NCBI GenBank assembly: GCA_048939015.1
Contig: JBHLPW010000011.1
Location: forward strand, 1-26,919
Direction: 5' to 3'
Source: Promethearchaeota archaeon
Lineage (GTDB): Archaea > Asgardarchaeota > Lokiarchaeia > Sigyniarchaeales > SOKP01
DNA length: 26,919 nt
Shown piece by piece: positions 8,444 through 25,340 of the stretch. A model generated the notes under the pieces. The model was not told the DNA's origin. It searched no databases and saw only the letters and a program-made list of their open reading frames with translations. How positions within the stretch are numbered: position 1 is the stretch's first letter; each line of letters opens with the position of its first letter. The translations under genes were made by a program, and so were the position numbers.

Positions 8444-8881
8444 TCAATAATCAAGATTAATATTTATATCTATTCCCTCTCTTATAGATTCTGAGATGAT
8501 ACAGAACTGCTTAAAACTCTTCTGACATTGATCTAAATTTTTACGTATTTCAGAATTATCGATCTTTGGATTTAATGTTATATCGATTTTTTTCAGCCTC
8601 CAAAAACCATTTTCGTTTTTCATACTCGTAACAATTGCCTTACCTTCGATATCTGACAATGAAACGTTATTCTTTTTACAACAGAATGTAAGACTACCTG
8701 CTAAGCAACCTAAAACTGATAAAGCTAACAATTTAGATGGATTAGGTCCAATTTTATTAATTGATCTTTTATTATATTCATCAATAAATAGATCATTCAT
8801 CTGTATTTTACCAAGATCGCACTTAAATATCATATCATTTTCTAGTTTTATACCAACTTCAGATTTATACTCATTTGACAA
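8444..8881 (-). CDS. OsmC/Ohr-family peroxiredoxin-like protein (paralog 1)
   Basis: GPNPSKLL...LGCL and C-terminal FCIISESIREG give the two OsmC cysteines. TTG start with an AAGGTGA SD at 8888-8894. Confidence 0.85.
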   Translation of the reverse strand: MSNEYKSEVGIKLENDMIFKCDLGKIQMNDLFIDEYNKRSINKIGPNPSKLLALSVLGCLAGSLTFCCKKNNVSLSDIEGKAIVTSMKNENGFWRLKKIDITLNPKIDNSEIRKNLDQCQKSFKQFCIISESIREGIDININLDY

Positions 8882-8887
8882 TTTTTA

Positions 8888-8894
8888 TCACCTT
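8888..8894 (-). promoter_or_regulatory. Shine-Dalgarno AAGGTGA for OsmC paralog 1
   Basis: Reads AAGGTGATAAAAA-TTG on the minus strand. Confidence 0.7.
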
Positions 8895-8897
8895 AAA

Positions 8898-9365
8898 TTA
8901 TATATCAAGATTAACATTTACCTCAATACCTGCACGTACGGACTGTGTTACTATACAATATTGTTCAAAAAAACTAACACCATCTTTTACTCCTTTTAAA
9001 CATTGTTTTGCTCTTTTGAGTGCTTCAGGATCTTCTATTATTGGTTCAATATTAACATCAATTTTTTTAATTCTTAAAAATCCTTTTTCATTTCTGGCAA
9101 TAGTAACTTCTGCTTCGGCTTTAAAGTCATCAACCTTGAAGTCTCTTTTTTTAAGACAGAAAATAAAACTTGCACTCAAACAGCCCAACACACCCAAAGC
9201 GAGCATTCTAGAAGGATTAGGTCCTAGCATATCCACTTCTGTATGATGTTCCTCATCAATATAACAATCTTTTACTTTCATAATACCGAGATCACATTTG
9301 AAAATCATCTGAGACTCAAATTCATCTAATTTTAACCCAACTTTAGTTTTAATTTCTTCTGAAAT
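8898..9365 (-). CDS. OsmC/Ohr-family peroxiredoxin-like protein (paralog 2); probable ATT start at 9365, giving 155 aa
   Basis: Motifs GPNPSRML...LGCL and YCIVTQSVRAG. The frame upstream of the ATG at 9308 encodes ISEEIKTKVGLKLDEFESQ, homologous to the paralog N-terminus MSNEYKSEVGIKLEND. GAGGTG SD lies 6 nt upstream of the ATT. Confidence 0.85.
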   Translation of the reverse strand: MSEEIKTKVGLKLDEFESQMIFKCDLGIMKVKDCYIDEEHHTEVDMLGPNPSRMLALGVLGCLSASFIFCLKKRDFKVDDFKAEAEVTIARNEKGFLRIKKIDVNIEPIIEDPEALKRAKQCLKGVKDGVSFFEQYCIVTQSVRAGIEVNVNLDI

Positions 9366-9368
9366 AAC

Positions 9369-9971
9369 TTACACCTCTTTAATTTTTTTCTCAATTTTTT
9401 TTAAGTGAAAGTGTCTGGATAAATGAAACCAGATAAATGGAATATATAGTAGAATTATATATATAAATTGAAAAGCAAAAAGTATTCCCATAACTATCAT
9501 AAGAATAAAGAGAATAATCTCTATAATTAAAAATAATTTATTATTATAATATTTAGCATCAAAGAAAGATGAAGGGTTCTTATATTCTGATAAATATTGG
9601 GGGAGATTTTCAAATTCCTCTTTTGAAATGAGGAATTTAAATCCAACCTGTTTTTGTTGAAAATACAATAAATTAGTGCCCCAATCTAAAGTATCAATAA
9701 TGATATGGGTGAAATATGAAATTGCGCTTATAATTAAAATTGTCCAATTAAAAATTAGCCCAATGAATAACATAATCACGCTTGGAATTATCGAATGGGT
9801 AATTAACAATCTATGATTATTTTGTTTCGCAAATTTAGAAAAAAAAATATCAAAATCACAAATAAAGGAAAACAAGACTATCATTGAAAATTCAAAAAGG
9901 TTGAAATTGAAAATCTGGTTTAAAATGGATGCAAATATAAAACCAACAGCAAAATGACTATTTATGTGCAT
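9369..9971 (-). CDS. Membrane-bound metal-dependent hydrolase (YdjM-like)
   Basis: Motifs MHINSH, CDFD, HRLLITHS and THIIIDTLD with about 4-5 TM segments. Confidence 0.75.
   Translation of the reverse strand: MHINSHFAVGFIFASILNQIFNFNLFEFSMIVLFSFICDFDIFFSKFAKQNNHRLLITHSIIPSVIMLFIGLIFNWTILIISAISYFTHIIIDTLDWGTNLLYFQQKQVGFKFLISKEEFENLPQYLSEYKNPSSFFDAKYYNNKLFLIIEIILFILMIVMGILFAFQFIYIILLYIPFIWFHLSRHFHLKKIEKKIKEV
9372..9377 (-). promoter_or_regulatory. Shine-Dalgarno GAGGTG embedded in the last codons of the upstream gene
   Basis: Reads GAGGTG-TAAGTT-ATT TCA GAA GAA on the minus strand. Confidence 0.6.
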
Positions 9972-9993
9972 ATGGATCTTTTTATTATTTTGA

Positions 9994-10977
9994 TTAGTTG
10001 ATATATCTCTCTTTTTTCATCCTTTTTAAAACAGTCTTTTTAGTTTCAAAACCAGAAGGTCCTTTTCTCTCAACTAAAAAAGATGCTGCAGCAGATGCTA
10101 AATATGCAGCCTTTTCAACTGATTTCCATGATTTGTCAGAATGAAAGAATTCATATAGAAATATAGAAAGATATACATCTCCTGCTCCTGTTTCATCAAC
10201 AACTTTTCGAGGTTTAAACGCTGGAATTTTCAGGATTTTTTCTCCTTTTTTTATTAGCATTGAACCCTTTTCACCTAACGTCATAATATAAATTCCATAA
10301 TTTTGATATTGAATACAATGATTCATAACCTCATTAAAATCATCCCATTCTCCAGCAATTAATTTCATTTCTTCCTCTGATCCTTTCAAAATCAATCTAT
10401 CTCCAATTAGATCTATAATTTTTATTAAATTAGCAATGATTTCATCATCATGAACATATCTAACTTTACCATTTTCATCAATTTTTCTGATAAAACCTTG
10501 TAAATCTATGCCAATATAAGTATCAGGAAAATTTTTTAAAACTTGTGATACATACTCATATGAAATTTCATTACAGAGTGGTACAAGCACAAATATATCT
10601 GGAGGATTATCAATAAATTGTGAAGGTATATCTTTAAAACTAAGATTTGGACTTCTTGATTTGAGAGTTAGAGTTCTTGCATGATCAAAATAATCTAAAA
10701 TAAAATTTGTATTCTTTACTTGGGAATACCTAATTCCACTTAAATTAATATTTTTTACCCTAATTTTATTTAATAAAGAGTCATCAAAATTTATTTTTCC
10801 AATATGAGAAACAACGCTTATTTCAGCATCTTTAGTATATTTCCTTAAAGCTAAGGAGCAGAATGACACACTTCCACCTAAACTAGGTTTATTTATTCGC
10901 TTAAAACGAATAATATGATCAATGGCAAAGTGACCAGCAAATATAATGGAAGTATGATTACTTTTTTGGGTATTCAT
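9994..10977 (-). CDS. PfkB/ribokinase-family carbohydrate kinase
   Basis: N-terminal GHFAID...LGGS, MTLGEKGS and the signature VVDETGAGDVY. Confidence 0.9.
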   Translation of the reverse strand: MNTQKSNHTSIIFAGHFAIDHIIRFKRINKPSLGGSVSFCSLALRKYTKDAEISVVSHIGKINFDDSLLNKIRVKNINLSGIRYSQVKNTNFILDYFDHARTLTLKSRSPNLSFKDIPSQFIDNPPDIFVLVPLCNEISYEYVSQVLKNFPDTYIGIDLQGFIRKIDENGKVRYVHDDEIIANLIKIIDLIGDRLILKGSEEEMKLIAGEWDDFNEVMNHCIQYQNYGIYIMTLGEKGSMLIKKGEKILKIPAFKPRKVVDETGAGDVYLSIFLYEFFHSDKSWKSVEKAAYLASAAASFLVERKGPSGFETKKTVLKRMKKERYIN

Positions 10978-12093
10978 TTAAGATGATTTTAGTGATTCAA
11001 TAATTTTATTTTTTTCGTCTATTGTAATTTTTAACTTATTGATTTTATTTTGCAAATCTTCTACCAAGTCTGACATAGGACCTGTATGAACTAAGGGTTG
11101 AGGTTGCTCTTGTGTTCTTAATTCTAAAATCAAACTTTCTTTTTCATTTAATTGGTTCTGTAATTTCGAAATTGTATTTTCAAGTTCATCAATTTGTGGA
11201 GTGAGTGTGGTTTCCTGTGTTTTCTTTTGTAAAGAATTTTGCACTTTGGATAGTTCATCTTTCAGAGCCTCATTTTCTTTCTTCAATTCTTTTAACTCAT
11301 TTGGTTCAAGCTTGATTCCACCGCTTTCTATTGCAGATTCTAGTTCAGACTTTTCTTTATTTAATGTATCTACAATTTTTTTGTATCTATTTAGATCCGA
11401 CTGAAGATCTTGACATAAAATTTCAAGCGTGTGAGCTGAAGGTTGGGTTGGTTGCGGCTTAATTACTGATGGTTTAGGTGTTTCCACAGGAACAACATAA
11501 TCTATTGGTAATTTCTTCATTTTTGCTATTAATTCTTCATTTAAAGCTTGATTTTCTTCAGTTAAATCAACAATTTTCTTTTCTAAATCCTCAGTTTGGG
11601 ACTTTTTCTTTGATAACTCAGATTTTAAATCATCAATTAAAGCACTAGTAGCATCAGTAGGAGCATTACTCATTGATTCAAGCGATCTTGAAGCTACTTC
11701 TAGTTTTGTTTTTAAATCAACTATTACATGGTTTCTTGCTTGTAATTCCACTTCCTTTTCTGTTAAATCTTTTTCTAAACTTATTACTTTATTATTCAAT
11801 GCAATATTTTCTTGTTGAATATTACTCACATTAGTTCCACCTGTAGATCCTGCTTGCTGTAATTGCGTTTTTAATCTCTCGTTTTCATCAATTGTGCTCT
11901 TGATGATTTCTTCTGTCCTAGTTATCAATTCTATATTTTCTTTTATTTTATTTCTCAAACGTTCATTTTCTTCTTCCATTTCTTTCATTTTATCTAAAGT
12001 TTCTCCGATAGCACTAGGTTTTTTGATTTCTGTTTCCATCTTTTTTCTCCATAGGCTTATGAAATCCTCAACTTTTTCATTATCTTCTGGCAT
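10978..12093 (-). CDS. Hypothetical segmented coiled-coil protein
   Basis: Heptad-rich E/K/L/N sequence interrupted by Gly- or Pro-rich linkers. Abuts the PfkB gene. Confidence 0.8.
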   Translation of the reverse strand: MPEDNEKVEDFISLWRKKMETEIKKPSAIGETLDKMKEMEEENERLRNKIKENIELITRTEEIIKSTIDENERLKTQLQQAGSTGGTNVSNIQQENIALNNKVISLEKDLTEKEVELQARNHVIVDLKTKLEVASRSLESMSNAPTDATSALIDDLKSELSKKKSQTEDLEKKIVDLTEENQALNEELIAKMKKLPIDYVVPVETPKPSVIKPQPTQPSAHTLEILCQDLQSDLNRYKKIVDTLNKEKSELESAIESGGIKLEPNELKELKKENEALKDELSKVQNSLQKKTQETTLTPQIDELENTISKLQNQLNEKESLILELRTQEQPQPLVHTGPMSDLVEDLQNKINKLKITIDEKNKIIESLKSS

Positions 12094-12330
12094 TTCACTT
12101 CAAGACATTTAATTTTCTTAAATTATTATAAAACTTCTTTCTATCTTAATTATTTTATGCTTTTCTCTTTTATAATTTTTGGAGCTTCTTTAACTTTTAT
12201 TTTTATCTCTAAAATATTTTATTTTAAGTAAATAATTATTTGTAAGAACTCCTGTTAAATTTGATTATTAAATGATTGGAGAGAGTTTTATCCTTAGGAA
12301 TTTATATGTAAAATAAAATATATGTTGATT

Positions 12331-13221
12331 CTACGAAGGTTTAGACAAGATACCTGAAAAATATCCCACACAATAACCACCAATACTTCCAGTTCTTTCA
12401 GAGCTAGTATAATATTTCAATAATTCACCTTTAGTTGCATTAAGATTCTTACTAATTAACATCAGTGTAGTAATTGTTTGTGGGCCACATACCGTAGTTT
12501 TTAAAGCCGCTTGAAGAGTTTTTTCTGGATTTAAATTTTTAAATTCTTTAATTACAGCTAAATCATATTCTTTAAATTTTTGCAATTGATTCGAATCATT
12601 TACTTGTTTATGTGACATATCTGAGGATGCTACAATAACGACATCTTTATTAATCGAATTTATCGCACCGGTTATATCATTTGCAATTTCATTCATTGTT
12701 TTAAAATCTCTAATTCCTGCTATTTTGATAGTTACGATTTTCACTTCTCTTTCGAGAGAACAGTATTTTATAAATGGTAATTGAATTTCTATATTATGTT
12801 CTTGTTCAGAAAATCCTGTAAATAAAGAATTGTCTTCTTTAATTATTTTACTTCTATCTAAAATTTTATTTGATAACTCCTCATCTATCTTCAAATTTCC
12901 TAGTGGGGTTTCCCATTCCCCTTTTGCCATCAATCCAATTTTGCCATGTCCCATGTGATCAGTACCTAAAACTATAATGGAATCGGGGATTTTTTCTTTA
13001 AATAAGTTTAGATAAGTAAAAGCGGCGCAGGGTCCCGAATAATCCATTCCAGCATGGGGAGAAACTCCCCCAATAATAGTTCTTTTTTCTTTATTCAATG
13101 ACATTGGTTCCTCATTCGGTCCAAATTGAGTATCGGAAAAATAATCACTCATTGCTTCAAGTAAACCTTTTTTTGATCCTGGATACCAAGAACCAGCATG
13201 GGTTGCTCTTCTAATTACCAT
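12331..13221 (-). CDS. MEMO1 family protein (AmmeMemoRadiSam system protein B)
   Basis: Motifs RRATHAGSWYP, SPHAGMDYSG, GTDH, WETPLG, EHNIEIQLPF, ASSDMSH, TVCG and YYTS...VGY. Confidence 0.92.
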   Translation of the reverse strand: MVIRRATHAGSWYPGSKKGLLEAMSDYFSDTQFGPNEEPMSLNKEKRTIIGGVSPHAGMDYSGPCAAFTYLNLFKEKIPDSIIVLGTDHMGHGKIGLMAKGEWETPLGNLKIDEELSNKILDRSKIIKEDNSLFTGFSEQEHNIEIQLPFIKYCSLEREVKIVTIKIAGIRDFKTMNEIANDITGAINSINKDVVIVASSDMSHKQVNDSNQLQKFKEYDLAVIKEFKNLNPEKTLQAALKTTVCGPQTITTLMLISKNLNATKGELLKYYTSSERTGSIGGYCVGYFSGILSKPS

Positions 13222-13340
13222 GTTCTCATCACCAATGATTAATATTTCTACATTAAATTTATTATTTTTGGAGTTTAAATAATTTCATTTACTTAGAGCA
13301 AAATTGAAAGAATTATTATATTATTTTTAATATCTCTTTA

Positions 13341-13937
13341 TTGATGAATCAACTAAACGATGAACAAGTCACTCTAAATAAAATTGAGGTACCAGACAAA
13401 ATTCCGGCAAAGTTCGTCAATTCGCGGGTAATTGTCTTCAATCCTTTATATGCTTCATATTTATATGTAAAGAAAGGATTTTTTGGTTCCCCGGTAGGAA
13501 TAAATAAACCGAGATTAGAATACTTTGCTAAACCTAGTGAATTATCATTGATAGAAGCTTATTATTTATTGGAAAAGGATGAAATTACTATATTTGATCA
13601 AAAAGAGAATAAATTTTTAGATCCGAAGGAATTTTATGATATTGCAACAAGGATTCATCATAAGTTTGAAGAAAAATACATAATTTACAAAGATTTAAGG
13701 GAGAGAGGTTATATTCCTAGACCTGGATTAAAGTTTGGAGCGGATTTTGTTGTATATAAGAAGGGTCCTGGACTTGAGCATTCTCTTTTTATGGTACATG
13801 TCCTACCACATGATTCTGAAATTACTGCTATCGATATGGTAAGAGCTGGACGTCTAGCGACTTCTGTTAGAAAAAAATTTGTAATAGCGAATCCACTTAC
13901 ACGCAGCTACTACTTTTTTGAGTGGTTTAAACCTTAG
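13341..13937 (+). CDS. endA: tRNA-intron endonuclease, catalytic subunit
   Basis: LSLIEAYYL, YKDLRERGY, GLKFGADFVVY (Tyr), GPGLEHS (His) and RLATSVRKK (Lys) give the catalytic triad. Confidence 0.95.
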   Translation: MMNQLNDEQVTLNKIEVPDKIPAKFVNSRVIVFNPLYASYLYVKKGFFGSPVGINKPRLEYFAKPSELSLIEAYYLLEKDEITIFDQKENKFLDPKEFYDIATRIHHKFEEKYIIYKDLRERGYIPRPGLKFGADFVVYKKGPGLEHSLFMVHVLPHDSEITAIDMVRAGRLATSVRKKFVIANPLTRSYYFFEWFKP

Positions 13938-13964
13938 TTTTTAAATGAATTATGTTTTGATAAA

Positions 13965-15788
13965 TTAAATAGATTTTACTCTCATTATCTGGATAAGATT
14001 ATTTTTTATCTCTTCAAGTTGTTGGAACTCATCATTTGGTACCATTTGATGGATACGCAAAATAGAGGATGTAAGGTCTGGATCGAATATTTCATCAAAT
14101 AATTTTCCTTTATTTATCAAACTTTTACCTTCTCTGTATAAAATAAGGATGATTTTGATTAATCCTAATAATTTTGTCATACTAGTATGATTATCAATTT
14201 GATCATATGCATTTTGAATTAAAAATCCATTTTTTATCATTTTTGCTATAAAGAGTGTTAATTTTTGGTCTTCAAGTAAATTCTTATCTCCAGCTAACTG
14301 AATCACATGCTCTAAGTCTTTTTCTTGCGATAGGATTTCATTAACTAGTTTTCTACATTCTAACCATTCAATATCTATCTCAGGCCATTCAATATCTCTA
14401 TTGTACCACCATTCTGCTATAAATTGTGGATAATTTGAATATGAATTTTGCCAATTAATAGCAGGATACTGCTTTAAATATGCTAATTTTGAATCTAATG
14501 CCCAAAAAGTTTGGACTAGCCGTTTGGTTGTTGATGTAACAGGTTCACTAAAATCCCCTGCAGGGGGAGAAATTGTACCTATAATGGTTAATGAGCCAAA
14601 TTTCTCATTTCCTTTTTGGTCATTCCCTAAAGTTTTAATATAACCGGCCCTTTCATAAAAACTTGACAATTTGGATGGTAGGTAGGCAGGATAACCTTCT
14701 TCTGCAGGCATTTCTTCTAATAATCCTGAAATTTCTCGCAAAGATTCAGCCCATCTTGATATACTATCAGCAAGAACAACGACATCATATCCCATATCTC
14801 TATAATATTCGGCAATTGTTACACCAGAAAATAAGCTAGCTTCCCGGGCAGAAACTGGCATATTAGAAGTATTAGCTATAAGTATAATTCTGTCTGATAA
14901 AGTTCTTCCATTTTTAGGATCTATAATATCAGAAAATTCCTTCATAATATTAGCAATTTCGTTTCCTGGTTCGCCACATCCAATATATACAATCAAATCT
15001 GCATTACACCATTTAGCTAACATTTGTTGGATGACAGTTTTTCCTGTTCCAAAACCACCAGGAATAGCTGTTGTTCCTCCTTTTGCGATTGGAAATAATA
15101 AATCAATAGTGCGTATTCCGGTAATTAATGGTTCAATGGGATTAAATTTCTTATCATATGGACGTCTTTTTGTAATCGGCCATTTTTGTAACATTGCAAA
15201 GGATTTTTCTTCATCGTTTACTTTTATTCTAAATATCTCATCAATAATTGTATAATTACCCTCATTTGCAATAAAGGAAAGGATTCCAGAAGTATAGGGG
15301 GGAACCATAATTCTATGTTCTAAATATGAAGTCTCTTGCACAACTCCAATTATATCTCCTATCTCAACTTTATCATTAAGTTTTCTTAATGGTATAAAAT
15401 GCCATTTTTTAGTTCTTGAGATAGAAGGATATTGTATACCTCTTTCTAACCTTCCGGAAAGAATATCTTCAAAAAGTCTTCCTAATGGTCTCTGTAATCC
15501 ATCGAATACATTTGAAAGAAGACCAGGAGCTAATTCCATTGAAAGTGGCTCATTTAAACTAATTACATTATCATATAGCTTCACGTTTGTAGTGTCTTCA
15601 AAACATTGAACAGTAACATGGTCTGAATAAATTTGGATTACTTCACCCAAAATATTATATTTGATAATCTTAATTAAATCATGAAGACGAGTTTGATTTT
15701 CAAGCCCCTTAACTTTAATCAATGATCCTATAATTGCTGAGATATATGCACGATTGGTTTTATTTTTTGAATCAGTTTGATTGAACAT
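13965..15788 (-). CDS. atpA: A/V-type ATPase subunit A, second paralog with altered catalytic motif (GEPGNE)
   Basis: Full-length A subunit with Walker A GGFGTGKT, NTSNMPVSAREAS, EEMPAEEGYPAYL and SPPAGDFSEPV. The GER motif reads GGC GAA CCA (Pro codon at 14967-14969). Confidence 0.93.
   Translation of the reverse strand: MFNQTDSKNKTNRAYISAIIGSLIKVKGLENQTRLHDLIKIIKYNILGEVIQIYSDHVTVQCFEDTTNVKLYDNVISLNEPLSMELAPGLLSNVFDGLQRPLGRLFEDILSGRLERGIQYPSISRTKKWHFIPLRKLNDKVEIGDIIGVVQETSYLEHRIMVPPYTSGILSFIANEGNYTIIDEIFRIKVNDEEKSFAMLQKWPITKRRPYDKKFNPIEPLITGIRTIDLLFPIAKGGTTAIPGGFGTGKTVIQQMLAKWCNADLIVYIGCGEPGNEIANIMKEFSDIIDPKNGRTLSDRIILIANTSNMPVSAREASLFSGVTIAEYYRDMGYDVVVLADSISRWAESLREISGLLEEMPAEEGYPAYLPSKLSSFYERAGYIKTLGNDQKGNEKFGSLTIIGTISPPAGDFSEPVTSTTKRLVQTFWALDSKLAYLKQYPAINWQNSYSNYPQFIAEWWYNRDIEWPEIDIEWLECRKLVNEILSQEKDLEHVIQLAGDKNLLEDQKLTLFIAKMIKNGFLIQNAYDQIDNHTSMTKLLGLIKIILILYREGKSLINKGKLFDEIFDPDLTSSILRIHQMVPNDEFQQLEEIKNNLIQIMRVKSI
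14652..14726. repeat. 75-bp near-identical repeat shared between the two atpA copies (other copy at 21320-21394)
   Basis: Direct comparison gives 73/75 identical nt. Confidence 0.85.
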
Positions 15789-15812
15789 TTAACATCCCAT
15801 ATTACAATCAAA

Positions 15813-16232
15813 TTAAGTTATTTGTTTGTTACAAAATGGACATTTTTTCACGAAACTTGGTAAAATATTTCCACAGCCTTGACACTTTTTAATTAAAGGT
15901 TTATGAACCCCCGAGTCAAGACTTATACGTCCAGGTATTCTTGGTTGAGGTATTTTCTCTTGAACTACTCTAGTTTGTTTTCTACTTGAAGATGTTCGTT
16001 TTCTATTTGGAAACATTTCAGAATATAACGATCTTTTACTTCGCTTAAAGAATAGACCAAGTCCAACTAAAAATAAGAAGGATATTAAAGAAATTATGAT
16101 AATAGGGTTAAAATTTAAATCAATTAAATAAAATAATAGGAATAAGAGAATTAAGGAGTATATAACTAAACCAGCAATTGCCTTTTTATTTATTCTAAAT
16201 TTATATTTCTTTTCGATATTTTCAGTTGCCAT
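15813..16232 (-). CDS. Small membrane protein with 2 TM helices and a C-terminal zinc ribbon
   Basis: Two hydrophobic helices, a basic linker and KCQGCG-x7-KCPFC. Lies between atpI and the second atpA with 24-38 nt gaps. Confidence 0.8.
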   Translation of the reverse strand: MATENIEKKYKFRINKKAIAGLVIYSLILLFLLFYLIDLNFNPIIIISLISFLFLVGLGLFFKRSKRSLYSEMFPNRKRTSSSRKQTRVVQEKIPQPRIPGRISLDSGVHKPLIKKCQGCGNILPSFVKKCPFCNKQIT

Positions 16233-16270
16233 TGATTATTAGCTTACATTCTAGATAGTTGGTTTATAAT

Positions 16271-18559
16271 TTATTTATATTTTTTAGAGATATAATTAAT
16301 TGCTTTTTCAATTTCCTCTCTAATAGATTCTGTTTCTATTTCTTTTTCAATTTCCTCAGAAATAATATCTTTTTCAGTTATTGACTTAAAGTTGATGATT
16401 GAAAAATTACTATCTAAATGGAAAGGAATATATCCCACTCCTGAACCTTGGAAAAATTTAAAAAAGAATTCATAAAAATGCAATCTGAGGGTATTTAGAA
16501 AAACTAATAATCCTTCTAATAAAATAACAATGAGATTTCCGAAGATTAAACCAATTAAATTCACTATTTCTACAACAATGCCTTCTCCTTGAATTAAATT
16601 AACCAAAACATTTATCGCATACAATAAAGCAATATGGGCTAAAGCTAACGCTAATAATCTAAGATAAGAAGCAACATTACTCATAACAGATAATACAGTG
16701 TCAAATGTTTCAAGAGAACCCTCACCTATTAATGAAGTATAAGATTCCTTTTTTAGATATGAAACTCCAAATAATTTTCCAAAAGGCTTCAAAATTAATA
16801 GTAATAAACCAGGTATTATCACTAATAAAATAGGATATGGATATGCTAACCAACTATAAATATCAAATCCATATACGAAAATTAAGATCGTTCCTCCTGT
16901 TAATAGAAAAATTTTCATTAAAGAATCAGTTAGTGCTAAATACTTTCTATATTGTTTCCAATAATTCAAAAATTGGATAATCCAACCTAAATTAATGTGG
17001 AAAACACCTATAATTATTGCAAAATAAAGCACAGACATTATGTTACCTAATGGATTGTAAAGGGTTAAATTTAAAAAAGGAATTGTTATAGGTTCTAAAT
17101 GCCATAAAACATTTCCAAAAATTTCAATTTCGTGGAGTCCAAAAAACTCCCCATATAAAAAACCAACGAAAAATGAAGCCCATCCACAGAAAAAGATAAT
17201 CCAAGAGAAATTAACAATATCACCTCCTCGTTTTCTATAGACTAAAGCTCCAATTAAGCCTGAAATAATAAGAACTAAACCATGACCGATATCTCCAAAC
17301 ATTAAGCCAAATAATATTGGAAAGGTGATTGCAATAATTGGTGTAGGATCAATTTCTGAATACGTTGGTGTACCATACATTCTTGTAAGTGTTTCGAAAG
17401 GTTTAACTAAAAAGAAATTCTTCATAATTGTTGGAGTTATTTCTCGTAAGTCTGATTTGTCTTCATCCTCTTCCAATGTATCTATTATAGGTTCTTCATC
17501 AGATTTTATTTTTTTAGCCGATTTTTTCTTTTTTATTTTTTCTAAACCATAATTTTCTTTTGTAACACTTTTTTTTGAGATTAAAATTGATTCAATTGTA
17601 ATATTATCCTTAAATTTATTAAATAAATTATTTTGAACATTTTTTAATTTAGAAGCAGGTACGAAAAATTTTAAAATTAAGCGATTACTTGGCATTCTTT
17701 CAAACTGTCTATTTGCCCAATTATATTCTTCAACATTTTGAACGATTTCATTGATTCCAGCGAACATTAGTAAGTTATCTTTACTAATTCGATTAAGTTC
17801 TTTATAATATCTTAAAAGCAAACTTTCAATAAAATTAATCTCTTTATCAATTCTTTTATGGTGTATTCCCGATTCTGTAAAATATTTTTTTACGATTGGA
17901 ACTTCTTCAGAATGAATAAGGCGAATTCTTCCATTAAACTCAATTTCTTTATCTCTTGGATAAATTATATAGAATCCAATTCTATCTTTAGAGACTTCAA
18001 AAGTTTGATAAAAGTTTGGAAAAACACTAAAATCGAAGAGGTTATTAAGGTTATTGAGATTTTTAGAAAATGTAGTAAATATTCTAAATTTAAATTGATT
18101 TATATCAACAAGTGAATCTGTTTTCATATTCAGCTTCTCTAAACTCTTATAGCAAACCTTTAACATATTCAAATTCTCTAATTCAATAGTTCCTTTAGCA
18201 ACAAAACTTTGCAATTCATTTACTCGATTACTATAAAAATTTACTTCTTCAAAAAGGTGGTTAATTAACTCTGGTAAATCATTTGCAGTAAATTCTATTC
18301 TTTTGATTTTATCACTTTTTAATTCTGAAAGAATAGACTCAGTAACATTAAGCTTTTTTAATAAATTATTTAAATTCTTTCTCAAATCTTTAATTCTATC
18401 AGCAATTGGTTCTTGATCTTCTGAATCTTCTTTAATTTTACTTTTCTCTCTCGGTTTTATATGAACTAAGGCTAAGTTAGATAATTCAATTAGAAATTGA
18501 TCTCTAAAAATGGGATTTATTTCGGTTTTCATCAAATAAAAGTTGTCTTTATTCGCCAT
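16271..18559 (-). CDS. atpI: A/V-type ATPase subunit I (a)
   Basis: Motifs PFETLTRMYGTPTYSEIDPT, FGLMFGDIGHG, the essential Arg in SNVASYLRLLALALAH, and LEGL...LRLHFYEFFFKFFQG. ATG at 18559 (MANKD) preferred over the TTG at 18592. Confidence 0.95.
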   Translation of the reverse strand: MANKDNFYLMKTEINPIFRDQFLIELSNLALVHIKPREKSKIKEDSEDQEPIADRIKDLRKNLNNLLKKLNVTESILSELKSDKIKRIEFTANDLPELINHLFEEVNFYSNRVNELQSFVAKGTIELENLNMLKVCYKSLEKLNMKTDSLVDINQFKFRIFTTFSKNLNNLNNLFDFSVFPNFYQTFEVSKDRIGFYIIYPRDKEIEFNGRIRLIHSEEVPIVKKYFTESGIHHKRIDKEINFIESLLLRYYKELNRISKDNLLMFAGINEIVQNVEEYNWANRQFERMPSNRLILKFFVPASKLKNVQNNLFNKFKDNITIESILISKKSVTKENYGLEKIKKKKSAKKIKSDEEPIIDTLEEDEDKSDLREITPTIMKNFFLVKPFETLTRMYGTPTYSEIDPTPIIAITFPILFGLMFGDIGHGLVLIISGLIGALVYRKRGGDIVNFSWIIFFCGWASFFVGFLYGEFFGLHEIEIFGNVLWHLEPITIPFLNLTLYNPLGNIMSVLYFAIIIGVFHINLGWIIQFLNYWKQYRKYLALTDSLMKIFLLTGGTILIFVYGFDIYSWLAYPYPILLVIIPGLLLLILKPFGKLFGVSYLKKESYTSLIGEGSLETFDTVLSVMSNVASYLRLLALALAHIALLYAINVLVNLIQGEGIVVEIVNLIGLIFGNLIVILLEGLLVFLNTLRLHFYEFFFKFFQGSGVGYIPFHLDSNFSIINFKSITEKDIISEEIEKEIETESIREEIEKAINYISKKYK

Positions 18560-18581
18560 AATTGTCACTTTCAATTTTTTT

Positions 18582-19217
18582 TTATTTTTCAATAATTAGA
18601 TCTTTAGTTTTTTTTAACCTAATATAATTTTCTCTGTCAATTTCCTCTAATATATCTTTTATTAGTTTAATGTTAGATTTCAATTGAGGAATTATGATAT
18701 TTTTTAAACCATTTATCCTACGATTGATTTTCTTAAAGTTTATTGCTTGTTTTAAAAGCAAATCTTCGATTTCAGAAAATTCAATCATGTGATTAAAAAA
18801 TGATTTCAAAGATTGAATTAAATCATCTAAATAATGACTTGTATTGTCAAATGTATAAGCAGGTAATTTTTCTTCTTGAATTAGTTCATAAGAAATTTGT
18901 GGATTTGTAATTCCTACTACTTTTTTGTAAAAAATTTCTATTTTAGGTTTGTATTGAATTCTACTTAAACTACTTATTAAGAACAATTCATTTTTTCCCA
19001 TCTCTTCATAAGTAAGATTTAATAATTTCATTGATTCTTTAAAAAAAGTGAGAAATTCGTTTCTATATTTAATATAATCTTTCCACATACTACGAAGTAA
19101 AATAATTAATTGTTCTCTTCTTAATTCCAAAAAATTCGCTCCTTTTTGAGCAAAATTTAATCTTTTACGCAAGTTTATTAAGTTCGTTTTACTTGGCTTT
19201 ATCTCTCTAAAACTTAT
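18582..19217 (-). CDS. atpD: A/V-type ATPase subunit D; probable ATA start at 19217, giving 211 aa
   Basis: RLNFAQKGANFLELRREQL and KKINRRINGLKNIIIPQL...LEEIDRENYIRLK. The conserved IKPSKTNL (P-T/S-x-x-x-L) lies upstream of the annotated TTG. Confidence 0.93.
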   Translation of the reverse strand: MSFREIKPSKTNLINLRKRLNFAQKGANFLELRREQLIILLRSMWKDYIKYRNEFLTFFKESMKLLNLTYEEMGKNELFLISSLSRIQYKPKIEIFYKKVVGITNPQISYELIQEEKLPAYTFDNTSHYLDDLIQSLKSFFNHMIEFSEIEDLLLKQAINFKKINRRINGLKNIIIPQLKSNIKLIKDILEEIDRENYIRLKKTKDLIIEK

Positions 19218-19220
19218 TCT

Positions 19221-20612
19221 TTACACCTTTTCAGAATAATATTTATCAATAAATTTTTGATGAATTCTAAGCAATTGATTTTCAGTTAAATTACCTAATA
19301 TATCCCAAGCGATATTAAGAGAATCTGCGAAATTACGATTTTCATCTGGTTGTTGATTCATAAATTTTTGTTCAAATTCTTGTCCATATTTCAATAAATT
19401 CTTTTGCTCAAAGTTTAGCCCATCTTCTCCGACAATTGAAATAAGGTCTTTAACTTCTAAATAATTTGAATAAGATGCTAATAATTGAGAGGATACATCT
19501 GCATGATCATCTCTCGTTTTATCCCCACCAATAGCATCCTTCATTAATCGTGATATTGAAGCTAAGACTTCAAAAGGAGGGTAGATGCCTTTCTGGTGCA
19601 AACTGCGACTTAAAACTAATTGCCCTTCAGTGATGTATCCTGATGTATCGGGAATCGGATGAGATATATCATCATTAGGCATTGTTAGAATGGGTATTTG
19701 AGTTATTGATCCCTTCTTGCCTTTAATTTTTCCAGTTCTCTCATAAATGGATGCAAAATCAGAGTATATATAGCCCGGATATCCCTTTCTGCTAGGTATT
19801 TCCTCTTTTGCAGAGCTTAATTCTCTTAAAGCCTCAGCGTAATTCGTCATGTCAATAAGAATAACAAGAACATGCATATCCTTTTCAAATGCAAAATATT
19901 CCGCAGTAGTTAAAGCGACTCTTGGAATAATTAATCTTTCTATAATTGGGTCATCAGCAAAATTGATAAACGAAATTATATTTTGTATAGTCCCTCTTTC
20001 TTGAAATTTATTTAAGAAATAGATTGCTTCATCTTGGATTATTCCTATCCCACAAAATATAATAACAAATTGTTCTTCTGAGGTAACTCGTGCTTGAGTC
20101 GCAATTTGAGCGGCTAATTTATTGTGAGGTAACCCTTGTGCACTAAAGATTGGAAGTTTTTGGCCTCTAATTAAAGTAAATAGCCCATCTATCACGGATA
20201 CTCCTGTTTGTATAACATCAATAGGGTATTCTCTAGCATATGGATTAATTGGCAGTCCATTAATATCTCTTTGAATATTAGTTAGAATCTCAGATTTTGA
20301 GATCATTTTAGTTTTTATATCTATAGGTTTACCTAGTGAATTAAAAGTCTGCCCAAACATATCCATTGAAATTTTTACTTTAAAAACATCTTCCGTAAAT
20401 ACTATCTCTGCATTCTCAGATGATAATCCAGAAGTATCTTCAAATACTTCCACGACTATCATCTCTTCATTCAATTTTACAATCTGGCCTGTACGAGTCT
20501 TGTTATCATCTGTATTAATTTTAACAATCTCACCATATTGAGCATCATGTTCGTTTTTAAGAAATAATAACGGACCTATAATTTGCTGAATTTTTCTATA
20601 AATTACACTCAT
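19221..20612 (-). CDS. atpB: A/V-type ATPase subunit B
   Basis: Motifs RGQKLPIFS..GLPH, DMTNYAEALRE, GYPGYIYSD, TMPNDDISHPIPD.SGYITEGQ and the arginine finger SISRLM. Confidence 0.97.
   Translation of the reverse strand: MSVIYRKIQQIIGPLLFLKNEHDAQYGEIVKINTDDNKTRTGQIVKLNEEMIVVEVFEDTSGLSSENAEIVFTEDVFKVKISMDMFGQTFNSLGKPIDIKTKMISKSEILTNIQRDINGLPINPYAREYPIDVIQTGVSVIDGLFTLIRGQKLPIFSAQGLPHNKLAAQIATQARVTSEEQFVIIFCGIGIIQDEAIYFLNKFQERGTIQNIISFINFADDPIIERLIIPRVALTTAEYFAFEKDMHVLVILIDMTNYAEALRELSSAKEEIPSRKGYPGYIYSDFASIYERTGKIKGKKGSITQIPILTMPNDDISHPIPDTSGYITEGQLVLSRSLHQKGIYPPFEVLASISRLMKDAIGGDKTRDDHADVSSQLLASYSNYLEVKDLISIVGEDGLNFEQKNLLKYGQEFEQKFMNQQPDENRNFADSLNIAWDILGNLTENQLLRIHQKFIDKYYSEKV
19224..19229 (-). 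promoter_or_regulatory. Shine-Dalgarno AAGGTG embedded in the atpB 3' end
   Basis: Reads AAGGTG-TAAAGA-ATA AGT TTT on the minus strand. Confidence 0.6.
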
Positions 20613-20614
20613 TT

Positions 20615-22453
20615 TTATTTAAATACCCCATGGGTTAATTTTAAAGATTCTATTTCATTAAGTAATTTATTCTTTAAATCATCAATTTTGTCGAAATCCC
20701 TATTCTCAATTGTACGATTAATTCTTAAAATATCACGTATTACTTTAAGTTCTCTAATTTCTTCTATAAAAAATCCTTTTTCTAACAGTTCTTCACCTTC
20801 TTTATATAATAAAAGAATAATTTTTATCATTCCCAAGAGTTTTTTCGCGTTTGTAAAGTTATCGATATTATCAAATGCATTTTGAATTAAAAATCCATCT
20901 TTAATCAACTTAGCAATAAATATAATTAAACGTTGATCTTCTGGGAGATTTTCCTCTCCAATAAGTTGTACAATATATCTTAACTCATTATCTTTTGATA
21001 GAATCTCATTTACTTGTTGACGACAATCATGCCAATCTATATCAATTTCTGTCCAATCTATATCTCTTTCATACCACCACTGTGAAATATAATCTGGATA
21101 ATTAGAATAAGAATTTAACCAATTAATTGCAGGATAGTGCTTTGAATATGCTAAAGCAGCATCTAAAGCCCAAATACCCTGTACAAAATTTTTAGTTGTG
21201 GCTGTAACTGGTTCACTAAAATCTCCTGCAGGAGGTGAAATAGAACCTATGATAGTTAAAGACCCTATGCTATCTTCATTACTTTCTTTTTTTCCAATTA
21301 ATTTAACAGTTCCAGCCCGTTCATAAAAACTTGACAATTTGGATGGTAAATAGGCAGGATAACCTTCTTCTGCAGGCATTTCTTCTAATAATCCAGAGAT
21401 TTCTCTTAACGATTCTGCCCATCTAGAGGTGCTATCGGCTAGAAGTGCAACGTCATATCCCATATCTCGATAGTATTCAGCAATTGTTACGCCAGAGAAG
21501 ATACTCGCCTCACGAGCAGAAACTGGCATATTTGATGTGTTAGCTATCAAAATTATTCGATCTAATAGGGATTGACCACTTTTAGGATCAATTAATTCAG
21601 AAAATTGTTTTAAAACATCGGCTATCTCGTTACCCCGTTCACCACAACCTACAAATACAATTACATCTGCATCACACCATTTTGCTAATGATTGTTGAAT
21701 GACTGTTTTACCAGTGCCGAATCCTCCCGGAACTCCAATTGTACCTCCTTTTGTAATGGGAAATAGCAAATCTATGACTCTTACCCCTGTGATTAAAGGT
21801 TCATGGGGCAATTTTCTCTCTTTAAAAGGGCGTGGAATAGTTATTGGCCATTTTTGTAGCATTGAAAAATTTTTTTCTGTATTACCAATCTGTAATTTAT
21901 AGATTTCGTCTGTAATCGTGAAGTCTCCTTCATCTGCTAGGAAAGTTAACTTTCCTGATATATTAGGAGGTATCATGATTTTATGTTGTATAATTGGAGT
22001 CTCTTGTACTGTACCAATAATATCACCACTACTTACATGTTTGTCAATATTACTATTAGGTAAAAACTTCCATTTTTTTGTGCGTGATAGGGAAGGAATT
22101 TCTAATCCTCTATGTAACCCACCTCCTTTAAAAAGATCAAAAGCTTCTTGTAAAGGTCTTTGAATTCCATCAAAGAAATTCCTTAATAACCCAGGTGCTA
22201 ATTCCATAGATAGAGGTTCTTTCAAATTAATGACCTCATCATTGATTCGTAAATTATTAGTGTTCTCAAAACATTGACATACTACATGATCAGTATAAAT
22301 TTGAATAACTTCTCCTAGAATTTTGTGTTTACTGATTTTAACCAAATCGTGAATGCGAATCTGGGTTTCTAGTCCTTTAACTTTAATTAATGAACCAATT
22401 ACAGCTGATATATACCCTATCTCAGAATTTTTTTCAGAATTGGATTTGCTCAT
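20615..22453 (-). CDS. atpA: A/V-type ATPase subunit A (canonical catalytic copy)
   Basis: Walker A GGFGTGKT, intact GCGERGNE, ADSTSRWAE, EEMPAEEGYPAYL and HYPAINW. Confidence 0.97.
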   Translation of the reverse strand: MSKSNSEKNSEIGYISAVIGSLIKVKGLETQIRIHDLVKISKHKILGEVIQIYTDHVVCQCFENTNNLRINDEVINLKEPLSMELAPGLLRNFFDGIQRPLQEAFDLFKGGGLHRGLEIPSLSRTKKWKFLPNSNIDKHVSSGDIIGTVQETPIIQHKIMIPPNISGKLTFLADEGDFTITDEIYKLQIGNTEKNFSMLQKWPITIPRPFKERKLPHEPLITGVRVIDLLFPITKGGTIGVPGGFGTGKTVIQQSLAKWCDADVIVFVGCGERGNEIADVLKQFSELIDPKSGQSLLDRIILIANTSNMPVSAREASIFSGVTIAEYYRDMGYDVALLADSTSRWAESLREISGLLEEMPAEEGYPAYLPSKLSSFYERAGTVKLIGKKESNEDSIGSLTIIGSISPPAGDFSEPVTATTKNFVQGIWALDAALAYSKHYPAINWLNSYSNYPDYISQWWYERDIDWTEIDIDWHDCRQQVNEILSKDNELRYIVQLIGEENLPEDQRLIIFIAKLIKDGFLIQNAFDNIDNFTNAKKLLGMIKIILLLYKEGEELLEKGFFIEEIRELKVIRDILRINRTIENRDFDKIDDLKNKLLNEIESLKLTHGVFK

Positions 22454-23162
22454 AATACTTCAAATATTCTGTTATTTTTCCCCGTTGATTATTAATAAAT
22501 TTTTCAAATTCTTTTTCTGTTTCCTTAATTTCTGAATCATCTATAATTTTTGCAATTTCTATTTGGATGAATGGTGATGCTTTATCTATCAAGTTATTAA
22601 GAGTATAATCATATGAGATAATCCCTCCTATAAGTGATATCTTGAAACCACCTATAAAATCACGTTGATCCTTGTTAATTTCAACAGGTTTTTTGAATAA
22701 CTTTCCAATTTTATCATAATTTTTAATAAAATAATCGTAATCTTTTGAATTAAATAGAATTTCTATATCATGAGTCTCATCTATGTTATTTTTAATATCT
22801 TTAATAGATTTTAATAAATAATTAATATATCCCGTATAATTTTTGTTGATTTTGTTTTCAATTAGAATAAATAAACTTTTTTTTAATTCTTGAATTAGAT
22901 TATTCTTTAATGCAAGGACTTTATCTTTCCCTTTTAATAATGTTGATGATAAGGATTGATTTAAAAATTGCCCAAAAGTTTCTATGAGGTGTGTTTTTAA
23001 TCTTTGAGATCTTTCATTACTTCTTTCCAAAAATCTTTTCTTGATTTCAGCCTTTTGAAATAATGTTTTTTGACTTAACTCTTTTATCTCTTTTTGAGCC
23101 TTCTCAATAAAATAATAACCCAATTGACTAAATTGTTTCCTTAATTCTTTTTCTTCTGAAAT
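22434..23162 (-). CDS. atpE: A/V-type ATPase subunit E; probable ATT start at 23162, giving 242 aa
   Basis: Coiled-coil N-terminus, C-terminal FIGGFKI...ISYDYTL (GG...D-x-T/S motif), and position directly upstream of atpA. Confidence 0.8.
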   Translation of the reverse strand: MSEEKELRKQFSQLGYYFIEKAQKEIKELSQKTLFQKAEIKKRFLERSNERSQRLKTHLIETFGQFLNQSLSSTLLKGKDKVLALKNNLIQELKKSLFILIENKINKNYTGYINYLLKSIKDIKNNIDETHDIEILFNSKDYDYFIKNYDKIGKLFKKPVEINKDQRDFIGGFKISLIGGIISYDYTLNNLIDKASPFIQIEIAKIIDDSEIKETEKEFEKFINNQRGKITEYLKYYEQIQF

Positions 23163-23176
23163 TTTAACTCAACTCA

Positions 23177-23500
23177 TTATTTAAAAACAATATCACCTAA
23201 TGCATCATGAATCTTATTAAAAATAATATCTCCTTCCTCAATATTAGGTTGGAAAATATTTGGTAAAAGAAATACAAAGGGCTTTTTATTGGCTTTTTTA
23301 TAATCCAATAAAAAGTCAATTATTTCATCTGATAATGCGATGGATATAAGCAATATCCCAATTGACTCTATCTTTATTAATTCGGAGAATTCTTTTAAAA
23401 ACTCTTCCTCATTTCTAACAACTGTACCTTCTATTCCTAAAAGCCCCAATAATATTACTATTTCATCTTCTCCTAGGATATGAATTTTTAGTTCTTCCAT
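23177..23500 (-). CDS. atpF: A/V-type ATPase subunit F
   Basis: KIHILGEDEIVILLGLLGIEG, IGILLI, PFVFLLP and IHDALG. 107 aa. Confidence 0.9.
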   Translation of the reverse strand: MEELKIHILGEDEIVILLGLLGIEGTVVRNEEEFLKEFSELIKIESIGILLISIALSDEIIDFLLDYKKANKKPFVFLLPNIFQPNIEEGDIIFNKIHDALGDIVFK

Positions 23501-23811
23501 TAAAAATCAATTCCTACCTTTTCAATAATTAGATTTTGTAAATTGGCTATATTTTTTTTAAAATTGTTTTCAATTTTATTAATTGCATTATTTAGATTTT
23601 TTTCATATACATTAGTTTCTTTGTCTATATCAACAGTTAGATTTCCTATAGCAGTCTTTACAAGCACATTTATTTTAGTTAAATACTCTTCAAATTTTTC
23701 ATTTTGGTTTTCTCGAAATTCTTCAATCTCTTTCAAGTTAAGACTTTTAGCATCATTTATTAGATTATCATAAACACTTTCAATATCCTTAAGCCATTCA
23801 AATATATCCAT
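23500..23811 (-). CDS. Probable A/V-type ATPase peripheral-stalk subunit G/H
   Basis: 103-aa helical, charged protein (LKDIE...LINDAK) in the operon, with a TAATG overlap to atpF. Confidence 0.65.
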   Translation of the reverse strand: MDIFEWLKDIESVYDNLINDAKSLNLKEIEEFRENQNEKFEEYLTKINVLVKTAIGNLTVDIDKETNVYEKNLNNAINKIENNFKKNIANLQNLIIEKVGIDF

Positions 23812-23861
23812 TAATCATCCCTTTCTTACTCTATATCTCATTTTGAATAATAATAATAATA

Positions 23862-24923
23862 TTATAGGATTTTATATTTTTCATTGATTAAAGTGACTAA
23901 TTTTGGTAATATGTATAAACGTATTTCTTTATCTTTTTTAATTAAGACTTCCATAATCTTATAAATTGTTAGATAATCAATCTCTCCAGCTCTTATCTTG
24001 AATTTTTTAAAGAAATATTCCAAATACAAAGTTTCAACTGACCATATTATGTGATTTCTATCAATTTCAAAACTTGGAAAAAGCGATCTAAATTCTTTTA
24101 TTCTACCTAATAGTTGATGTAGTATTGAAATAAAATCTTCAATAGTAGATTGTTCTATCAAAAATAATAGAATACTACTGTCAAAAAATAAAAATGTATC
24201 AACTAAAAATTGTTGTAACAAATTTCTATCAATGTTATTTTTAATTCCCCTATAAATTATATTTAAATTATATATCTCAGAGATATATCTTATATAAAAT
24301 GAAATTATTGCTTTTTCTTTTGGATTTAAGTACTTTATTTCATCAACCAAGGTATTATAAAATAATTGATCTAAAAAAGCTTCAAGTACAAATATTTCAT
24401 TGGTTTTTTTAAAGTAAAGAATTCCTTCTCTGATTACTTTATGATACTTAGTACGTCTCATAAATAATTGAATTTGATCTAAAGAGGATATTTCAATTAG
24501 GCTTTTCATGAAATCTGTATTATTTAAGTATTTTTCAACTAACATATTTACCATTTTCGATTTTTCTTGAGTACTCATTCCTAATATTGTACCGAGGATG
24601 ACATGTTTAATATTCATTATTTCATACTTCGTTAGAAAATTCTTTAGAAAATTTCTCATATTTTCTGGAGAGTATGATAGAATTTTACCAATTAATTTAA
24701 TATAAGTATGGAAAAGTGCTCTTTCAATATCTTCTATTGTGTATGCATTAAAACTAAGACCTGGATAATATACACTGATATATTCTATAAATTCATTAAT
24801 ATCAGAGATTTCGTCTAACTTTTGAAATGATGATTTATCCATTAATAATTGTTTTAAATAACCAATCTTAATTAAAGTATAAGCGTAGCTGGGGACGGTA
24901 ACACTCGTAAGAAATTCACTTAT
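23862..24923 (-). CDS. atpC: A/V-type ATPase subunit C (d); probable ATA start at 24923, giving 353 aa
   Basis: Motifs KYEIMNIK, LEAFLDQLFY, SEIYNLNIIYRG and KDKEIR. The in-frame upstream segment YAYTLIKIGYLKQLLM resembles the conserved Y-x-Y-x-x-x-R/K...LL N-terminus of subunit C. Confidence 0.85.
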   Translation of the reverse strand: MSEFLTSVTVPSYAYTLIKIGYLKQLLMDKSSFQKLDEISDINEFIEYISVYYPGLSFNAYTIEDIERALFHTYIKLIGKILSYSPENMRNFLKNFLTKYEIMNIKHVILGTILGMSTQEKSKMVNMLVEKYLNNTDFMKSLIEISSLDQIQLFMRRTKYHKVIREGILYFKKTNEIFVLEAFLDQLFYNTLVDEIKYLNPKEKAIISFYIRYISEIYNLNIIYRGIKNNIDRNLLQQFLVDTFLFFDSSILLFLIEQSTIEDFISILHQLLGRIKEFRSLFPSFEIDRNHIIWSVETLYLEYFFKKFKIRAGEIDYLTIYKIMEVLIKKDKEIRLYILPKLVTLINEKYKIL

Positions 24924-24959
24924 TAAGTATTTTTTATATATTATTTAAAAAAATTATTT

Positions 24960-25340
24960 TTAAGCTGCTGGTGTTGGTATCTTTGTCCAAAGTAAAATTC
25001 CAACAATGAAACCATAAATTGCTAATGCTTCACATAAAGCTACAATTAAAAAAGCCTTAAAAAATGCTTCTTCTCTCTCTGAAAGAGCTGAAATTGCTGC
25101 CGTGCCAACTGTTTTCATAGCCAATGCACTTCCAATTACAGAAAGACCAACTGCTATCGAGGCACTTATAGCCATTGATGCTGCAGTTACCGAATTATAA
25201 TAATCAAATGTACTAGGAACTTGTGCTACTACAAATGAAACAATTCCGTTTGAAGTAAAGATTACTAAGAATATCAAAATAACTTGAAATATACCAAGAC
25301 AAAGATAAAACTTTTGTTTTCCGTTCATAATTTTTTGCAT
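24960..25340 (-). CDS. atpK: A/V-type ATPase proteolipid subunit K (c), single hairpin with N-terminal leader
   Basis: AVGLSVIGSALA..VG.AA and LIVALCEALAIYG (ion-binding Glu), plus an extra hydrophobic N-terminal segment. Confidence 0.93.
   Translation of the reverse strand: MQKIMNGKQKFYLCLGIFQVILIFLVIFTSNGIVSFVVAQVPSTFDYYNSVTAASMAISASIAVGLSVIGSALAMKTVGTAAISALSEREEAFFKAFLIVALCEALAIYGFIVGILLWTKIPTPAA

Follow-up and report, generated by a model that had tools for sequence, protein, structure and literature searches.

Evidence for widespread near-cognate start codons in a lokiarchaeal genus, from ATP synthase subunits to the initiation factor aIF1

The stretch of DNA analyzed here (the window) comprises 26,919 nucleotides and opens contig C72 (JBHLPW010000011.1) in the 4.86-Mb, 29.8% GC assembly of a Promethearchaeota archaeon of the Lokiarchaeia (GCA_048939015.1); database entries closely homologous to its proteins likewise bear the names Promethearchaeota or Lokiarchaeia. 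Four of its genes, all on the minus strand and encoding a second OsmC-like protein (OsmC-2) and subunits D, E, and C of an A/V-type ATP synthase (atpD, atpE, and atpC), appear to begin at codons one mismatch away from ATG, and we consider it highly probable that such near-cognate codons are true translation starts. Aligned sequences place these codons where orthologues carry ATG or TTG and indicate that coding constraint begins there. The first-pass annotation, made from the letters of the window alone, had proposed ATA or ATT starts for all four genes; each of its four codons is indeed in frame and precedes a Ser codon, with an in-frame stop closing the frame upstream, and the Shine–Dalgarno (SD) motifs that it saw 6 nt upstream of OsmC-2 and atpD are present (Table 1). 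Comparison with relatives moves one of the four starts, that of atpC, to a different codon, and a genome-wide test extends the observation far beyond the window.

The alignment of orthologues suggested at the outset finds ATG or TTG at the same codon of atpD and OsmC-2 in other families and ATT or ATA in atpE in 20 of 21 genus genomes. The start column of atpD reads ATA in 11, ATT in 6, and ATC in 4 of the 21 genus genomes that include the gene start. It usually follows the atpB stop directly, the SD motif falling inside the last codons of atpB. In other families, the codon is ATG in five genomes and TTG in two. The 15-codon extension aligns with the solved Thermus subunit D from Thermus residue 3 onward, and a database record of AtpD (P0001) is 211 residues long with Met at the ATA position. 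Among 22 genus orthologues of OsmC-2, the column holds ATT (15), ATA (5), or ATC (1); the same codon is ATG in two orthologues from family f2 (G037 and G039) and TTG in the tandem paralogue, whose N-terminus matches the OsmC-2 extension as had been noticed from the window itself. In one relative (G016), an ATG comes immediately after the ATT, and in another the next codon is TTG. The GTG within the OsmC-2 SD motif is open and in frame in many relatives; in this genome, a stop follows it. The atpE start, originally ranked the weakest case, proves as firm as that of atpD within the genus, with ATT in 16, ATA in 4, and TTT in 1 of 21 genomes and a stop no more than 8 codons upstream in 20 of them; the outgroup N-terminus aligns only loosely with the genus start codon. 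The single TTT, in G024 (L047), stands behind a perfect SD motif with an in-frame ATA two codons upstream and may reflect a shifted start or an assembly error. An expectation-maximization (EM) mixture model of gene starts gave a posterior of 0.94 for the ATT of atpE and likewise for that of OsmC-2. Pairwise differences within the extensions at codon positions 1/2/3 are 0.22/0.09/0.47 for atpD, 0.29/0.15/0.53 for atpE, and 0.14/0.09/0.42 for OsmC-2, and no in-frame stop occurs in any of the three across the relatives. The extensions, to judge from these alignments, are under purifying selection of the coding type, where a lack of coding conservation had been named beforehand as grounds for discarding them.

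For atpC, the proposed extension is real, whereas its start had been misplaced by five codons: not the ATA at 24923 but the ACG at 24908 is the better-supported codon. ACG, which follows a GGTGA-type motif, occupies the column in 20 of 23 genus genomes; two of the others have TTG and the third has ATG. Six family f2 genomes have ATG at its position, at least 13 database AtpC homologues start with Met at this residue, and the EM model picked ACG unaided (posterior 0.84). In this genome, no stop interrupts the frame from ATA 24923; that codon has no SD motif (only A and T lie upstream), varies in relatives (TTT, TAT, TCT, CTG, and others), and is separated from the conserved ACG by an in-frame stop in five of them, which makes it the weaker reading of the aligned sequences. 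The GTG within the SD motif offers an open in-frame codon in some atpC orthologues. Because atpC would start at ACG, the set of start codons is likely wider than ATA and ATT. Two other genes of the operon also vary among relatives: atpK has ACG in G032, G025, and G039, ATT in G028 (all family f2; L056-L059), and ATG in G036, and atpF has ACG in G016 (L049) and ATG in all others.

That start selection is relaxed across the lineage, as the first-pass annotation had supposed from four genes, is borne out by the spacing between SD motifs and potential start codons. Taking frames of 100 codons or more, we scanned the vicinity of their 5′ ends for strong SD motifs and counted ATT, ATA, ATC, CTG, and ACG as near-cognate. 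The motif leads to a canonical ATG, TTG, or GTG at 394 sites; of the 174 strong-SD sites without one, 102 have an in-frame near-cognate codon at 6 to 8 nt, compared with 7.5 in out-of-frame controls and 21 to 26 in frame at other spacers, and the in-frame peak is confined to the 6- to 8-nt spacer. These 102 sites comprise 45 ATT, 42 ATA, 8 ATC, 6 CTG, and 1 ACG. Judging by N-termini recognized by eye, the frames listed include some for response regulators, for ribosomal proteins L15, L21e, and S10, and for small GTPases in which the first canonical codon comes only after the P-loop. The spacing signal indicates that about one-fifth of strong-SD genes very probably start at ATT, ATA, ATC, CTG, or ACG; near-cognate starts account for at least about 2.4% of 3991 frames and probably for 4 to 6% of genes. 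The EM model assigned them to 3.8% of genes at a posterior of at least 0.8 and 5.6% at a posterior of at least 0.5; its soft counts reach about 11%, which we take as an upper bound, and it missed atpD. Given equal priors over all non-canonical codons, it converged on ATT, ATA, ATC, and CTG. In regions around ribosomal protein L3 from 20 genomes, the starts of L3, L4, and L23 are canonical, and an automatic start-picker gave false calls there. The Ser codon that follows all four starts proposed in the first-pass annotation turned out not to be special, Ser being second in 22 of 102 near-cognate (22%) and 53 of 287 ATG (18%) starts (p = 0.56); the 39% given by the EM model carries the bias of its learned second-codon term.

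The SD consensus learned by the EM model, AGGTGA, was assigned to about 64% of genes in this genome and fits the archaeal 16S anti-SD consensus (PMC7531240). This clear signal contrasts with the published description of SD sequences as rare in Lokiarchaea (PMC12993045), a statement that rests on Promethearchaeum; a 400-kb sample of G032 has fewer strong SD sites per gene, and its 3 near-cognate and 23 canonical starts are too few for a rate. Methanocaldococcus indicus and Methanothermococcus Ax23, which have the same SD motif and 28 to 32% GC, gave 3 near-cognate against 242 canonical starts in 800 kb (Fisher p = 5e-16 for this genome versus these Methanococcales). They were used because G041, a 1.4-Mb Asgard genome of family f5 first meant as the negative control, came out positive, with 8 near-cognate and 94 canonical starts in 400 kb (L186-L205; p = 0.003 versus the Methanococcales). 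Its eight SD-led near-cognate starts are five ATA plus ATT, ACG, and CTG. The trait would therefore extend past the Lokiarchaeia, at lower frequency. Near-cognate frames in G041 include ones that resemble the proteasome alpha subunit (ACG), MoaA, and the primase small subunit.

One of the genes affected encodes an initiation factor. The aIF1/SUI1 gene (C27:8581, plus strand; L100:1426) has no Met in frame and starts at ATT, a codon that is invariant in 21 of 21 genus genomes where it could be read. In other genera of the family, the start is ATT, ATC, or ATA, and ATA or CTG starts occur in four other Asgard families (f6, f9, f11, and f17); most other Asgard families and the Methanococcales have ATG or GTG. 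By analogy with infC, this distribution suggests that autoregulation arose repeatedly in Asgard archaea. In Sulfolobus, aIF1 discriminates against AUU in vitro (PMC4705826), and here the factor retains an intact zinc knuckle and basic loop, with KWGR in place of the RFGK or RYGK of solved archaeal structures (PMC6237735). Damage to the initiation machinery was considered as a cause and rejected: aIF1, aIF1A, aIF2, the uS9 tail, KsgA, and the initiator tRNA (Met-tRNAi) are all present with conserved cores. The Met-tRNAi, which ARAGORN missed and a pattern search found, has a normal CAU loop and a likely intron right after the anticodon; the initiators seen are CAU only, in an assembly whose tRNA set is incomplete. 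ARAGORN also calls candidates for tRNA-Pyl (CTA, with intron) and tRNA-Sec (TCA), located at C40:27483-27584 and C77:15344-15436. The gene for aIF2-gamma (C40:79246, plus strand; L364:217-546) encodes an extra N-terminal helix-hairpin-helix (HhH) domain (PF14520, E = 8e-11) that, together with a K/E-rich linker, recurs in each of the 13 genus loci read and is the one unusual feature seen in the machinery; in the order's other families, its place is mostly taken by a low-complexity extension rich in Lys.

The near-cognate codons lie 6 to 8 nt past an SD motif, and we propose that SD pairing would park the 30S subunit there so that ordinary Met-tRNAi pairs with two of the three bases and inserts Met. 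Prepositioning of the archaeal 30S subunit by SD pairing has been described (PMC4705826, PMC6237735), and SD-led AUA and AUU starts in Staphylococcus aureus yield about 10 to 30% of AUG output (PMC13009471); initiation at these codons would likewise be less efficient than at ATG. The lineage would tolerate such starts in several per cent of its genes, with some staying weak over long times, and the permissiveness would come from a low or self-limited level of aIF1 rather than from a broken factor. The ATT of aIF1 itself would then provide infC-like negative feedback, holding fidelity at a permissive set point and tying all such genes to the level of aIF1. The evidence for selection on some weak starts is modest: three start columns vary among A, T, and C and never show G, which is also true of 13 of 46 variable fourfold columns (approximately p = 0.02), and the ACG of atpC and the ATT of aIF1 are held as well. 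We can only tentatively extend this to genome-wide translational control in the Lokiarchaeia, and less so in other Asgard archaea, in which 4 to 10% of genes would have selected near-cognate starts set by autoregulating aIF1, possibly aided by the aIF2-gamma extension.

Several points weigh against near-cognate initiation or against its proposed control. The support is sequence comparison, and the relatives are non-independent samples. Rescoring of the EM model with flat priors lacked the power to single out ATH codons, and a search of the assembly for the 16S 3′ end with its anti-SD tail did not find it. No loss-of-fidelity lesion was seen in aIF1 loop 1, aIF1A, aIF2-beta, or the uS9 tail, so the fidelity-loop substitutions envisaged in the first-pass annotation are not evident, and KsgA shows no loss. 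Autoregulation of aIF1, which rests on analogy, is possible.

Among other explanations, a credible one, though not the one we favor, is neutral drift under relaxed stringency, in which A+T pressure converts ATG to ATA or ATT and a permissive ribosome tolerates the change with no regulation. Drift shares the initiation mechanism proposed above, differs on purpose alone, and may hold for many genes. The low GC content of the genome, the dominance of ATA and ATT, the change of the atpD third base at least four times among A, T, and C, and the unrelated functions of the affected genes all speak for it. Yet ATG, a single transition from ATA, is absent from the three start columns; the GC-richer ACG is kept at atpC in 20 of 23 genomes; the aIF1 start is invariant ATT in the genus and ATC, ATA, or CTG in other Asgard families; and the Methanococcales lack the trait at comparable GC content. 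The first-pass annotation had suggested instead that weak starts tune the stoichiometry of the ATP synthase. In A/V-ATPases, subunits D, C, E, F, I, and H are present in low copy, A and B in high copy, and K in the highest, and within the genus the weak starts of D, C, and E and the ATG starts of A, B, and K fit that idea. Low-copy F, I, and H also have ATG, however, K starts at ACG or ATT in the four family f2 genomes named above, and about 100 unrelated genes share near-cognate starts, which leaves stoichiometric tuning doubtful.

Translational coupling, with a ribosome ending the upstream gene and reinitiating at the nearest acceptable codon, would explain why an upstream stop lies 3 nt before the start of atpD and of OsmC-2 and 14 nt before that of atpE, but the atpC start lies about 50 nt after atpK. 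Across the genome, a same-strand stop lies within 30 nt upstream of only 20% of near-cognate starts compared with 44% of ATG starts, so coupling is not required, and 68% of near-cognate starts have no same-strand stop within 100 nt (upstream open reading frames shorter than 100 codons being excluded); coupling as the sole explanation is thus improbable. We give very little weight to mRNA editing that restores AUG (C-to-U at ACG and A-to-I at ATA) or to a second initiator tRNA reading Ile codons. Editing of ACG to AUG occurs in plant organelles, and the incomplete tRNA set leaves some room for another initiator, but ATT, ATC, ATA, ACG, and CTG would require several chemistries, ATA, ATT, and ATC interchange at one site, and only CAU initiators were found. 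An artefact, be it miscalled bases, untranslated extensions with the true start at a downstream ATG or TTG or at the GTG of the SD motif, or a readthrough fusion, is similarly remote and largely refuted. As noted above, many OsmC-2 orthologues and some of atpC could be read in frame from that GTG, and atpB and atpD share one frame here. Against this, the same codon class recurs in more than 20 independent assemblies, the extensions are conserved as coding sequence and that of atpD matches a solved subunit D, and the GTG is followed by a stop in this genome and changes frame among relatives. The atpB-atpD fusion was rejected since the two frames differ in G001, G005, G014, G016, and G023.

If the near-cognate codons are the true starts, they are widely missed, and the systematic N-terminal misannotation anticipated from the window is evident in the databases. 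Among 120 AtpD homologues, about 97 are truncated, about 10 are over-extended, and 12 begin at the right codon, including the window's own record and several NCBI entries; among 120 AtpC homologues, the start is placed at the downstream Met in about 50 and upstream of the ACG in about 30. These tallies were made by regular expression with a few misfiled rows, and the counts are approximate. For proteins with such starts, the median loss in gene calls is about 20 N-terminal residues, P-loops and first helices among them, and ACG starts escape even pipelines that accept ATA and ATT. Proteomics and structure prediction are affected by this misannotation, as are claims that particular Asgard genes are truncated.

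Table 1. Positions of the near-cognate-start genes, their SD motifs, and related features in the window
Feature	Positions	Strand	Details
OsmC-like paralogue 1	8444..8881	-	TTG start at homologous codon; internal N-terminus reference
OsmC-like gene 2 (OsmC-2)	8898..9365	-	155 codons; start ATT 9365-9363; first ATG 19 codons downstream; PF02566
SD of OsmC-2, GAGGTG	9372..9377	-	spacer 6 nt; overlaps last codons of upstream gene; in-frame GTG, then stop of that gene
atp operon K-C-H-F-E-A-B-D-I	16271..25328	-	ATG starts here: K (25328), H, F, A, B, I (18559)
A/V-type ATP synthase subunit D (atpD)	18582..19217	-	211 codons; start ATA 19217-19215, 3 nt past atpB stop; first TTG 15 codons downstream; PF01813
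SD of atpD, AAGGTG	19224..19229	-	within last codons of atpB; spacer 6 nt
ATP synthase subunit E (atpE)	22434..23162	-	242 codons; start ATT 23162-23160; first TTG 13 codons downstream; PF01991 weak, E = 1e-4
Weaker SD-like motif of atpE, GAGTTGA	23169..23175	-	spacer 6 nt; GAGGTGA in several relatives
ATP synthase subunit C (atpC)	23862..24908	-	348 codons; probable start ACG 24908-24906; first ATG 22 codons downstream; PF01992
Weaker SD-like motif of atpC, AAGTGA	24916..24921	-	spacer 7 nt to ACG; GGTGA in most relatives; ATA 24923 at 5′ edge of motif

The longest-frame starts of atpK (25340) and atpI (18592) overshoot, and orthologues place them at the ATG codons given in Table 1. Just downstream of the operon lies a divergent second ATP synthase subunit A paralogue (13965-15788, minus strand), and between it and atpI is a gene for a small membrane protein whose C-terminus carries a zinc-ribbon motif (15813-16232). 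The OsmC-like genes form a tandem pair (8444-9365, minus strand); in many relatives, a third OsmC-like gene immediately precedes the pair, and in this genome an unrelated membrane protein (9369-9971) takes its place.

Individual near-cognate starts are already known, and what is new here is their scale, the use of ACG, and the start of aIF1. AUU or AUA starts behind a strong SD motif have been described in Escherichia coli infC, where they serve autoregulation of IF3, and pcnB, and in S. aureus infC, cvfC1, ccpN, and citZ (PMC4705826, PMC13009471). As in those bacterial cases, the codon is positioned by an SD motif and conserved between species, and a fidelity factor's own gene uses it; bacterial genomes have about 2 to 4 such genes and rely on IF3, whereas about 100 or more are indicated here, in an archaeon with aIF1 and aIF2, where they include core ATP synthase subunits and ribosomal proteins and extend to ACG. 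Deinococcus deserti starts dnaA at ATC, rpsL at CTG, and infC at ATA (PMC2830850), and shares with this lineage essential genes whose conserved ATC, CTG, or ATA starts annotation missed, with Met removal before Ser expected here as well; its four genes were identified by N-terminal proteomics, whereas the starts described here are far more frequent and known from comparison. The apparatus otherwise resembles that of SD-directed initiation in other archaea (PMC7531240, PMC6237735), with aIF1, aIF1A, aIF2, an SD consensus complementary to the archaeal 16S tail, and a normal Met-tRNAi. Eukaryotic eIF1 autoregulation (PMC4705826) offers a further likeness, a homologous factor with a deliberately poor start and the use of ACG and CTG, but it involves AUG in poor context and scanning, whereas the starts described here are non-AUG codons positioned by an SD motif. 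A literature search, with most subscription papers out of reach, found no report of such starts in Asgard archaea, and a 2026 Asgard review does not mention them.

Reviews of archaeal translation list AUG, GUG, and UUG only and report that aIF1 rejects AUU (PMC7531240, PMC4705826); a lineage with about 100 or more near-cognate starts would change that description. The ATT start of aIF1 would be an archaeal parallel to the autoregulation of IF3 and eIF1. Because the Asgard archaea are the group from which eukaryotic initiation evolved, near-cognate initiation in this lineage would bear on when strict AUG selection arose.

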